From the sequence record MZ170040.1: 64,000 nt of DNA; one strand, written 5' to 3'. Each line of letters opens with the position of its first letter. Position 1 is the stretch's first letter. This DNA comes from Escherichia phage vB_EcoM_FJ1. A program made the translations under genes and the position numbers. Shown piece by piece: positions 22,019 to 28,144 of this stretch. Below the pieces are notes generated by a model. That model ran no database searches. It saw only the letters and a program-made list of their open reading frames with translations, and was not told the DNA's origin.

Positions 22019-23197
22019 TTAAAAATATTTTTTAAAACTCATCATAACTTTATCATCAACGTCATTATCAATCTGTGCAACAAGGTAAGATGACAGTTCT
22101 ACTTCTTGTGGCGCGGATTGAACATTATCAGAATTAAGATATTCACGAATCCAAGGATATGGATGTTTAACCGGAGCATCGGTAATTGGGCATGGAAGAC
22201 CACACTGTTTCATACGAGATACAGTTAAGTAATCAATAAAGCTCCACATGCTATTTGTATTTAATCCAGGAACATCGCCATCTTTAAATAAATGAACTGC
22301 CCAATCTTTTTCTTGGCGGTTAACTTCCATGAAAATATCAACTGCTTCTTGTTCACACTCTTGAGCAATTTTAACCCATTCATCACCATCAGTACCGGAT
22401 TGAAGCTGACGAATAATATATTGAGTGCCTTTAAGGTGAAGCTGCTCATCACGTGCAATGAACTTCATAATCTTGGCATTACCTTCCATGATTTCCATGT
22501 TCTTATGGAAGTTAAAGGTACATGCGAAAGATACATAAAAACGAATAGCTTCTAAGGCATTAATAACGTGCAAACAGAGGTAAAGAGATTTCATTAAAGC
22601 ACGTTTAGCTTCGGCTTCTTGTTTAATAGCTCGGTTTAAACGAAAGACAGCATCAGGAGATTCTTTAGCTAGTTCTACAAATTCTTTAGCATTTTCCCAT
22701 TCACGGGTTTTAATCAGAACATCATCATAATAACGCCCAATGGATTCAGCACGTTTCATAATAGCTTCATCTAATACAATCTCATCAAATACCTTCGATG
22801 GATCAGTATAAAGATTTCGCATGATATGTGTATATGAACGGCTGTGAATAGTTTCACTAAAAGTCCACGTAGCAACCCATGTATCAAGGCTTGGGTCTGA
22901 AATTAATGACATAAGTACAGCAGACGGCGCACGACCCTGAATGCTATCCAAAAGTGATTGATACTTCAAGTTGTTAGTAAAAATATTCTGCTGATACTGA
23001 GGAAGCTTATTAAACTGTGCAGCATCCATCATTAAGTTTACTTCTTCGGGACGCCAGAAAAATGATAAGGACTTCTCTGTAAGTTCTTCAAATACTCGAT
23101 GCCGTTGAATATCATAACGCGCAATACCAAGACCTGAACCAAAAAACATAGGTTCTTTTAAAACATCAACTGGATTTGTATTAAAAACTGTGCTCAT
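22019..23197 (-). CDS. nrdB: ribonucleotide reductase small subunit, intron-less
   Basis: 392-aa uninterrupted ORF; R2 ferritin-like size and position. Confidence 0.9.
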   Translation of the reverse strand: MSTVFNTNPVDVLKEPMFFGSGLGIARYDIQRHRVFEELTEKSLSFFWRPEEVNLMMDAAQFNKLPQYQQNIFTNNLKYQSLLDSIQGRAPSAVLMSLISDPSLDTWVATWTFSETIHSRSYTHIMRNLYTDPSKVFDEIVLDEAIMKRAESIGRYYDDVLIKTREWENAKEFVELAKESPDAVFRLNRAIKQEAEAKRALMKSLYLCLHVINALEAIRFYVSFACTFNFHKNMEIMEGNAKIMKFIARDEQLHLKGTQYIIRQLQSGTDGDEWVKIAQECEQEAVDIFMEVNRQEKDWAVHLFKDGDVPGLNTNSMWSFIDYLTVSRMKQCGLPCPITDAPVKHPYPWIREYLNSDNVQSAPQEVELSSYLVAQIDNDVDDKVMMSFKKYF

Positions 23198-23248
23198 AAA
23201 TTTTCCGCTTAGTTAATAGTTGGTGACTCGTCCATGAGTCAAATTATA

Positions 23249-25830: not shown

Positions 25831-26047
25831 ATTGTTTTTCCGTTAATACAGTAATATCATAGTAACAATCGGAAGAAGTTTTAACTGTGGAAATTTTATT
25901 ATCAAAATACTCACGAGTCATTTTATGAGTATAGTATTTTTTACCATAAATGGTAATAGGCTGTTCTGGTCCTGGAACTTCTAACTCGCTTGGGTTAGGA
26001 AGTGTAAAAAGAACAACGCCAGAAGTATCTTTAAATCGTAAAATCAT
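25784..26047 (-). CDS. hypothetical protein
   Basis: 87-aa ORF; ATGA overlap with td. Confidence 0.55.
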
Positions 26048-26904
26048 ATTGCCATTTTCCCTTTAATTGCTGGATGCGATTCATAATTTTCAAGGATAAA
26101 ATCTTTCGGTTTCATGTATTCAGTTAACCAGTAAAGCTGTGTTTCGGTGTCACAATTTCCAAACTCTATAGGCCAATCAATTTTAAGTTCACACAGTTCT
26201 TTAGGCTCACGACGTAAAATTTCTTTACATTGCTCAGTATGATTCATATAGATGTGAGTATTACCACCAGAAAATATCAAATCTCCTGGGATAAGATTAC
26301 ACATCTTAGCCACAATATGCGTCAAGGCAGCGTACGAGGCAATGTTGAATGGCAAGCCCAAGAAAACATCTACACTTCTTTGGTACCATTGTAAATCAAG
26401 ATAACCATTACGCACATTAAACTGATAGAACATATGACAGGGCGGTAATGCCATTTGATTGATTTCAGCTGGATTCCATGCTGAAACGATTTGACGTCGA
26501 TCAGTTGGTAATTTTTTAATACGATCAATAGTTTCAACTAATTGATCCACACCACCGAAATCACGCCATTGTTTACCGTATATAGGACCAAGTTCACCAC
26601 TATGATATCCTAGGTCTTTAGCCTGGTTTTCATAGTTATCGTCCCAAATAGTTTTACCTTGAATAAGACTGCCATGAGTGCGAAGACGTAAATCATTAAC
26701 ATTGGTAGAACCGGAAATAAACCATAGAAGCTCAGCAATGCATGCATTCCAGGCGAGCTTCTTAGTTGTTACTGCAGGAAAACCTTTGGTTAAATCCCAA
26801 CGCAATTTAGTACCGAACAAAGCAATTGTTCCTGTGCCCGTTCGGTCATCGGTTTCATAGCCATTTTCAAAAATGTCTTTAATTAAATCTTGGTATTGTT
26901 TCAT
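26044..26904 (-). CDS. td: thymidylate synthase, intron-less
   Basis: 286-aa uninterrupted ORF; active-site region ALPPCH. Confidence 0.95.
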
Positions 26905-26949
26905 TTAGTACCTTATATAAATTATAATACATTTTATGAAGCTGAATAA

Positions 26950-27309
26950 TCAATACGGTTTAGCATCAAATTTTCTTTCAATTTCAGGCGTGAAATATAA
27001 TTCTTTACCACGTTTGGAAAAGCGACCAATAATATGATAATTATTCTTATCAAACGTAATATTACCAATATCCATAGCTTTCAACCAAATATCGATATTT
27101 CTATCCAGCTTTATGTCAAAATTCCAATACGGAGAACTATTACCGAAAATACTGCAAGCGGATTCAGTGAAACAGCTACTATAAATCTTGTCTTTAGGAA
27201 CTACTAATTGATAGACACCTTTAATAAACTGAGGACCTTGCCATTTTGGCTGTTTCGCGTCTTTTTCTAATAGAATAGGGTAATAATTAAAATTCATATT
27301 TTCCGCCAT
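26950..27309 (-). CDS. hypothetical protein inserted between frd and td
   Basis: 119-aa ORF; no recognisable motif. Confidence 0.5.
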   Translation of the reverse strand: MAENMNFNYYPILLEKDAKQPKWQGPQFIKGVYQLVVPKDKIYSSCFTESACSIFGNSSPYWNFDIKLDRNIDIWLKAMDIGNITFDKNNYHIIGRFSKRGKELYFTPEIERKFDAKPY

Positions 27310-27317
27310 GCGTTATT

Positions 27318-28144
<827 letters not shown>

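Follow-up and report, generated by a model that had tools for sequence, protein, structure and literature searches.

The window analyzed here, a stretch of 64,000 nucleotides from Escherichia phage vB_EcoM_FJ1 (MZ170040.1), carries an open reading frame between the genes for dihydrofolate reductase (DHFR; frd) and thymidylate synthase (TS; td). Our results suggest that this ORF, hereafter termed O1 (26950..27309, minus strand), is a real family gene that is ancestral in the frd–td slot and was lost in T4, and that it may encode a co-expressed but dispensable binding protein. We consider this overall account likely. The genes that occupy the slot are probably ancestral, with T4 being a deletion derivative rather than this phage being an insertion derivative.

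The genes that flank O1 are readily identified. The frd gene (27318..27899, minus strand) encodes 193 amino acids, matches Pfam DHFR_1 at 3e-19, and is 98% identical to T4 Frd. Its longest ORF (202 aa, start at 27926) over-extends, since T4 and its relatives start at the ATG at 27899, and this ATG overlaps the stop codon of an upstream 81-aa gene (27899..28144). The td gene (26044..26904, minus strand; 286 aa) matches Pfam Thymidylat_synt over its full length at 7e-96. An initial annotation, made from the letters of the window, had placed the two genes 413 bp apart with an intact 119-aa ORF between them, and both statements are correct (frd stop to td ATG, 26905..27317). It had also cited a reported overlap of frd and td in T4. 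The sequence confirms this overlap: in NC_000866, frd spans 145109-145690 and the end of td exon 1 is at 145112, which yields a 4-nt ATGA overlap.

The absence of introns from td and nrdB was likewise described correctly, because each ORF is contiguous in the window, td as one 286-aa ORF and nrdB as one of 392 aa (22019..23197, minus strand). In T4, td is joined from two pieces around I-TevI, and nrdB is joined from two pieces around I-TevIII. The gap between nrdA and nrdB is only 51 bp in the window (23198-23248), so mobE and nrdB.1 of T4 are missing as well. At least four mobile or optional elements of T4 (the I-TevI intron, mobE, nrdB.1, and the I-TevIII intron) are missing from this 6-kb stretch.

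The window belongs to the genus Tequatrovirus, where the closest sequences reach 96-98% identity and no exact match exists. Three alleles of the frd–td slot are found in this genus. The arrangement frd–O1–td, as in the window, is present in about 362 records, including T2, RB10, RB14-type slur phages, RB18, RB51, Shfl2, wV7, and ime09; in T6, too, the two genes are separated by one for a hypothetical protein. About 135 records carry the arrangement frd–O3–td, in which a 205-bp insert holds an unrelated ORF of 68 aa (PHROG 9550). Phages with this allele include ACG-C40, Paracelsus (Bas36), fPS-90, fFiEco06, and pSs-1, among others. O3 (MSNKLKVKDVPNAMALFICRQMHQG...) is tightly coupled to its neighbors, overlapping the frd stop through ATGA and the td start through TAATG (L013:601-807 in ACG-C40, JN986846; L014:601-807 in Paracelsus/Bas36, MZ501096), and it has no counterpart in the window. 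The third allele, with direct overlap of frd and td, is represented by about 26-30 records (T4 laboratory strains, RB55, RB59, vB_EcoM_112, G2133, FL12, FL18, SG1, JEP6, and HY03). Overall, ∼95% of Tequatrovirus records hold a gene in the slot, and the T4-type empty junction accounts for ∼5%.

Several annotations of O3 differ from this gene model. The ACG-C40 record starts the gene at an internal ATG and gives it 42 aa, and in Paracelsus it is unannotated. It is also unannotated in Shigella phage SH7 (NC_054942, L021:1452-1658), where its reading frame, compared with that of ACG-C40, is shifted by +1 within an A8 run. The shift marks a pseudogene or, alternatively, an error in sequencing the homopolymer. 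Homologues of O3 with ∼42% identity are present in coliphages of ∼150 kb (ukendt, Schickermooser).

Homologues of O1 occupy the same position well beyond Tequatrovirus. Members of its family, PHROG 1928, are found in at least eight other Tevenvirinae genera and in metagenomic T4-like contigs, in the slot after frd. In seven phages (Enterobacter phage MY742, Jiaodavirus ValerieMcCarty04, Gelderlandvirus CGG4-1, Marfavirus R3_1, Moonvirus Moon, Winklervirus CHI14, and Kagamiyamavirus EcS1), diverged homologues with 26-48% identity to O1 lie directly after frd and mostly overlap its last codons. A second ORF of 115-124 aa, termed O2, then follows in most of these phages. Tandem pairs of O1 and O2, which belong to one PHROG, are located at L003:2513-3191, L005:2501-3156, L006:2474-3143, L007:2480-3134, L008:2492-3188, L009:2492-3185, and L010:4001-4673. 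Three tandem copies lie between the DHFR and TS genes of one metagenomic T4-like contig (L018:3041-4102). O3, here of 68-69 aa, is found just before td in three lineages (L003, L006, and L010), and therefore the fullest arrangement of the slot is frd–O1–O2–O3–td. Adjacent slot genes in the other genera are joined by stop/start overlaps of ATGA, TAATG, or 8-20 nt.

Linkage to the DHFR gene is a consistent feature of the family. One to three tandem copies lie directly downstream from this gene at 17 of the 18 loci examined, which represent at least 10 lineages; a member stands right after the DHFR gene in L001, L003-L011, L015-L018, L020, and the window. When the context of six of the most divergent members was checked, five proved to be immediate downstream neighbors of a DHFR gene, present singly or as two or three tandem copies, and the TS gene follows the slot on every one of these contigs that is long enough. 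The linkage is kept even where the DHFR is barely recognizable (E=1e-14) and frd.1-3 are gone (L015-L018 and L020). The exception is a member of 139 aa (P0036) on a Logan SRR22022328 contig (L019:3501-3920) that has no DHFR gene upstream. Among the genes upstream of it is one resembling NMN transporters, and the family member itself is the last gene before the contig end.

Comparison of the slot alleles reveals the boundaries of the segment that T4 lacks. A repeat search identified one copy of a direct repeat, TAAATGAAA(C)AA, at the start of td (26896..26907, minus strand). The other copy, TAAATGAAA(T)AA, is at the end of frd (27313..27324, minus strand), where it holds the frd stop codon and a vestigial ATG-AAA-TAA. 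The two TAAATGAAA(C/T)AA copies are identical at 11 of 12 nt and have a spacing of 417. A comparison of the frd–td junctions, of the kind proposed in the initial annotation, shows that removing the 417 bp between the TAAATGAAA copies from the window reproduces the T4 and RB69 junction, TATAAATGAAACAATACC, exactly. Whichever of the three slot alleles is considered, the flanking sequence is the same as far as the junction. The T4 locus, whose flanking genes are 96-98% identical to those of the window, matches it up to the junction, but T4 lacks the 417 bp holding O1 and has the I-TevI group I intron in td, whereas the window shows the reverse.

Formally, this difference could have arisen by insertion or by deletion. 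The initial annotation favored the former by calling the ORF inserted, and the comparative data argue against this part of its reading. Deletion is the favored direction because the family is syntenic across genera, because O1 has diverged from its nearest outgroup (L010/L011; 63-66% identity) as gp32 has (65%), and because the empty junction is rare in Tequatrovirus. Two further observations point the same way: No nuclease is associated with O1, and its presence is independent of the td intron. This independence is evident since the two occur both together and apart. O1 and the intron are found together in T6, PST, NBG2, and ECML-134; the window has O1 alone, and T4 has the intron alone. The same combinations exclude loss of O1 as a hitchhiker of the td intron by I-TevI co-conversion.

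According to this reading, members of PHROG 1928 would have been the ancestral occupants of the space between frd and td, and Tequatroviruses would have kept O1 only, O3 only, or neither. The ATGA overlap of frd and td in T4 would be a derived state, generated by a precise 417-bp deletion between the TAAATGAAA copies that left the stop codon of frd and the start codon of td in place. Losses of this kind may have occurred repeatedly, through precise deletions between short repeats located where one slot gene stops and the next starts. Their precision would be expected, because only such deletions leave frd and td intact.

Some data do not fit a single loss. The direct junction is also present in RB69, in ∼147 Mosigvirus records, and in phages of the PSD2001/RZ/TH44 type, and vertical descent therefore requires several independent precise losses. 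In addition, the junctions of the O1 allele are loose (8-20 nt and 45-nt spacers) and non-overlapping, unlike the tight ATGA couplings of other genera, and the 12-nt quasi-repeat TAAATGAAA(Y)AA that bounds the O1 segment could be read as an insertion footprint. These features would be explained if the direct junction, identical in T4, RB69, and other Mosigvirus members, were ancestral to the T-even core clade (T4, RB69, and Dhakavirus-like phages), through a single loss of the slot genes, and if Tequatrovirus had regained O1 and, separately, O3. This alternative appears unlikely to us. It would involve illegitimate, microhomology-based insertion from a more distant T4-like phage, which would make the ORF an insertion but not a selfish element. 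Deletion is preferred because regain demands two independent illegitimate insertions, of O1 and of O3, each placing a slot-native gene into its exact native slot, without donor-like sequence in the frd and td flanks and without a closer donor. No donor closer than 66% to O1 was found among 5.8e9 proteins, and the match between O1 and gp32 divergence to the same outgroup also speaks against regain. Moreover, the ATGA overlaps at slot gene boundaries offer microhomology for recurrent precise deletions that spare frd and td.

Insertion could also have been driven by a selfish element. The initial annotation had interpreted the locus as different from T4 in mobile-element content, which is true for the missing td and nrdB introns but does not appear to extend to O1, whose family shows no nuclease motif or fold and whose presence is independent of the td intron. 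Nevertheless, there are reasons to consider O1 as a free-standing homing endonuclease or selfish cassette that entered between frd and td in the manner of T4 segG or mobE. Like the free-standing homing endonuclease genes of T-even phages (segA-G, mobA-E), O1 is an optional ORF between conserved genes that is polymorphic among close relatives within one genus. The corresponding region of T4 is rich in such genes (I-TevI, mobE, I-TevIII, and segG), a direct repeat of 9-12 nt is found on both sides of the 417-bp segment, and two GenBank records even carry the label “putative homing endonuclease.” We nonetheless judge this explanation very improbable. No match to GIY-YIG, HNH, LAGLIDADG, PD-(D/E)xK, or any other entry of Pfam, NCBIfam, or PADLOC was obtained at E≤1 with 17 family members, and no PDB sequence match was obtained. 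These searches, made with up to 17 members, were equally empty for defense-related domains. The 115-aa product yields a confident model of a probable β-barrel that has no nuclease neighbor, it is much smaller than Seg proteins, and its gene is under strong purifying selection (see below). Furthermore, O1 is polymorphic in Tequatrovirus but is confined to a single locus across at least eight genera rather than spread sporadically and without synteny, and its gp32-like divergence indicates vertical descent, not hopping.

The two labeled records are those of the orthologue in Bas39/FriedrichMiescher (MZ501066, L001:3950-4297) and of the homologue in Jiaodavirus ValerieMcCarty04 (OR271596, L004:2504-2821). 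The label looks like an annotation artifact, and it is unsupported because no nuclease domain, motif, or fold was found.

The longest ORF for O1 begins with an ATG and encodes 119 aa (MAENMNFNYY...), but the gene product probably has 115 aa, because the start codon at M5 of the long ORF is conserved in homologues. This ATG, at 27297, is almost invariant in family alignments, and the start sequence ATGAATTTTAATTAT is identical in metagenomic contig L010, where it overlaps the frd stop. Many GenBank records use this short form. The long ORF is therefore probably over-extended by four codons, and 26950..27297 (minus strand) is the probable true coding sequence. Downstream of the frd stop codon TGA (27318-27320), the first ATG of O1 follows at a distance of 8 nt and the conserved one at 20 nt.

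Several lines of evidence indicate that O1 is a genuine protein-coding gene of the early region. A tblastn search matched 580 phage records, and the ORF is intact (at least 80% covered) in 579 of these. Identity is at least 90% in 362 of the 580 records, and it falls between 95% and 99% at the amino acid level in 340 records. Relative to phage Bas39, the gene exhibits seven synonymous differences and one non-synonymous difference (dN/dS 0.03). When compared with the 63-66% identical orthologues of metagenomic contigs L010 and L011, dN/dS is ∼0.09, with dS saturated. Judged by these substitution patterns, O1 is under purifying selection, with dN/dS of about 0.03-0.1. The initial annotation would have withdrawn its claim had the ORF been absent or disrupted in all close relatives and devoid of a coding signature; instead, most relatives carry it intact and its coding signature is clear. 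Although O1 lacks an assigned function, domain, or characterized homologue, T4 and RB69 manage without it, and AT-rich sequence of this kind yields several overlapping spurious ORFs on the opposite strand, the idea that it is a non-functional relic or a chance ORF in spacer DNA is effectively refuted by this conservation pattern, by family motifs that are kept down to 20% identity, and by an AlphaFold pLDDT of 91.

O1 is not a new gene. Hundreds of GenBank genomes already list it as a “hypothetical protein,” a PHROG is devoted to it, and the initial annotation had therefore observed a known polymorphism. By sequence identity and location, O1 is the orthologue of the protein annotated in this way in T2, T6, RB14, RB18, RB32/51, Shfl2, and hundreds more Tequatroviruses. 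The GenBank entries between frd and td of RB51 (RB32ORF229c), Shfl2 (Shfl2p237), T2, T6, RB14, RB18, wV7, and ime09 share its position and orientation and are 92-99% identical to it in amino acid sequence. The window copy is one to four residues removed from the commonest variants and 98-99% identical to published copies. A full-text literature search on the frd–td ORF and phrog_1928 found nothing specific.

A profile search, in line with the homology search that the initial annotation had proposed for the 119-aa product, identifies it as a member of PHROG 1928. The match has E=3.1e-35 and aligns residues 8-115 with positions 2-125 of the 126 in the profile. O2 paralogues match the same PHROG (1e-36), as does the Jiaodavirus O1. 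An exhaustive HMM search of 1.84e9 representative proteins recovered only 51 clusters. Four of these are weak multi-stretch matches on CarboxypepD_reg/PEGA repeat proteins, and the others are stand-alone proteins of 95-148 aa. On the evidence of these profile searches, PHROG 1928 is a small family restricted to T4-like phages. Its motifs are Q/K-K-W after β1, (H)G-x-Y at β2, and a G-R-F-x-K-x-G hairpin near the C terminus. All of these are present in O1, whose residues W23, G31, Y33, G95, R96, F97, K99, and G101 are invariant or nearly so in alignments.

Sequence relationships likewise identify O1 and O2 as tandem paralogues. They share the PHROG, the motifs QKKW, HGxY, and GRFxKxG, and the slot, and their joint alignment has invariant Q20, W23, G31, G95, F97, K99, and G101. 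O2 proteins (115-124 aa), found in Karamvirus-like phages, Marfavirus, Moonvirus, Winklervirus, Kagamiyamavirus, and Gelderlandvirus, differ from O1 by an insert of ∼20 residues (ALVxxGxxPTIxxYKRxPxxY) after the conserved W. Neither the window nor any Tequatrovirus locus examined carries O2, and a family HMM run against all six-frame ORFs found no further O1 paralogues in the 64-kb window.

O1 would be co-transcribed with frd and td, because it is on the same strand, begins 8-20 nt after frd, and is separated from neither gene by a predicted terminator. A scan of the region for promoters and terminators gave counts no higher than those for shuffled sequence; for promoter-like matches, 12 were found versus 11.0 ± 3.3 expected. 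Similarly, an Rfam search of the frd–td slot for structured RNA at E≤1 returned only two sub-threshold chance matches. A non-coding spacer of 45 bp extends from the O1 stop to the td start (26905..26949, minus strand). It contains a σ70-like −35/−10 match, TTGATT-18-TATTAT, in addition to TATAAT, and may hold a candidate promoter for td that is possibly specific to the O1 allele. Alternatively or additionally, the spacer may be a scar of lost O2 or O3 genes. Upstream of the promoter-like match (window 26905-26953) is AGCTTCA, which bears a loose resemblance to a MotA box.

The O1 product is a protein of ∼13 kDa that is mildly basic; O1-type members have a median pI of 8.6 and a net charge of about +2. 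Two AlphaFold2 models were generated, one from 27 sequences (pLDDT 78) and one from the conserved start with 63 sequences (pLDDT 91.3, pTM 0.83). Both depict a β-rich domain with one helix in the order β1-β2-β3-α-β4-β5. DSSP assigns the elements of the pLDDT-91 model as E6-12, E27-34, E62-64, H68-77, (E80-82), E86-96, and E99-104, an order that is compatible with an OB fold. The model topology and the mildly basic pI lead us to describe the product as OB-like. A compact small β-barrel of this type is, on balance, the better description of the predicted structure, short of established membership in the OB fold.

The nucleic-acid-binding domains with an OB fold (SSB/PriB, RPA, HIN, S1, and the RecO N-domain) are among the closest known systems to O1. 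No structural neighbor was found for the confident model. Weak sequence signals to transthyretin-like domains (E=0.03) count against an OB-like fold; no significant sequence or structure match links O1 to the transthyretin-like, CarboxypepD_reg, or PEGA β-sandwich. Aromatic, basic, and glycine residues make up the invariant set (W23, Y33, and the hairpin G95-R96-F97-x-K99-x-G101), and no catalytic motif is present. The invariant residues fall in the β1–β2 region and the β4–β5 hairpin. In OB-like barrels, the face formed by β1–β2 and β4–β5 is the one that binds ligand.

What might such a protein do? The frd and td genes of T4 are early/middle genes of a cluster for deoxynucleotide synthesis. 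O1 could be an accessory binding or adaptor protein that has nucleic acid or protein as its ligand and works alongside DHFR and thymidylate synthase in dNTP supply. A link to these enzymes is suggested because the family persists beside frd across the T4-like radiation while nearby small ORFs turn over. Any such role would be dispensable, because T4 and RB69 lack O1, and both phages grow well without it. We offer this binding role only tentatively, as it is drawn from gene context and a predicted structure. Against it stand the lack of homology to any characterized protein and the member on L019 that has no DHFR gene before it.

A more specific, and in our view quite doubtful, proposal is that PHROG 1928 proteins (O1 and O2) are dedicated partners of the thymidylate cycle, namely, small OB-like adaptors made in fixed proportion with DHFR and TS. 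If this were true, the adaptors would tether DHFR to TS, or would tether both to the replisome or to gp32-coated ssDNA. Protozoan DHFR-TS is a bifunctional protein, and tethering by O1 would be its non-covalent analogue. Such adaptors would also explain why one to three copies are kept between frd and td across the T4-like radiation.

Whatever its function, the distribution of this gene alters the view of a familiar locus. T4 is atypical of its own genus, since the textbook overlap of frd and td is present in only ∼5% of Tequatrovirus records, and the remaining records have one of two alternative small genes, O1 or O3, in the slot. By-products of the analysis include the three-allele structure of this slot, the paralogy of O1 and O2 together with their linkage to frd, and a confident protein model that has no structural neighbor. 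Annotation also gains, in that an unsupported “putative homing endonuclease” label can be removed and an O3 allele that several records mis-annotate or omit has been identified. More broadly, a tiny family that T4-like phages retain beside the DHFR gene despite their great divergence is a candidate for the study of phage nucleotide metabolism.

One of the direct-overlap records has an unusual annotation of its own. The genes of the frd/td region are named “putative prohead core protein / portal vertex protein” in the original HY03 entry (KR269718.1), whereas the RefSeq copy lists them as thymidylate synthase and dihydrofolate reductase. An annotation shift thus appears to have affected the original record.
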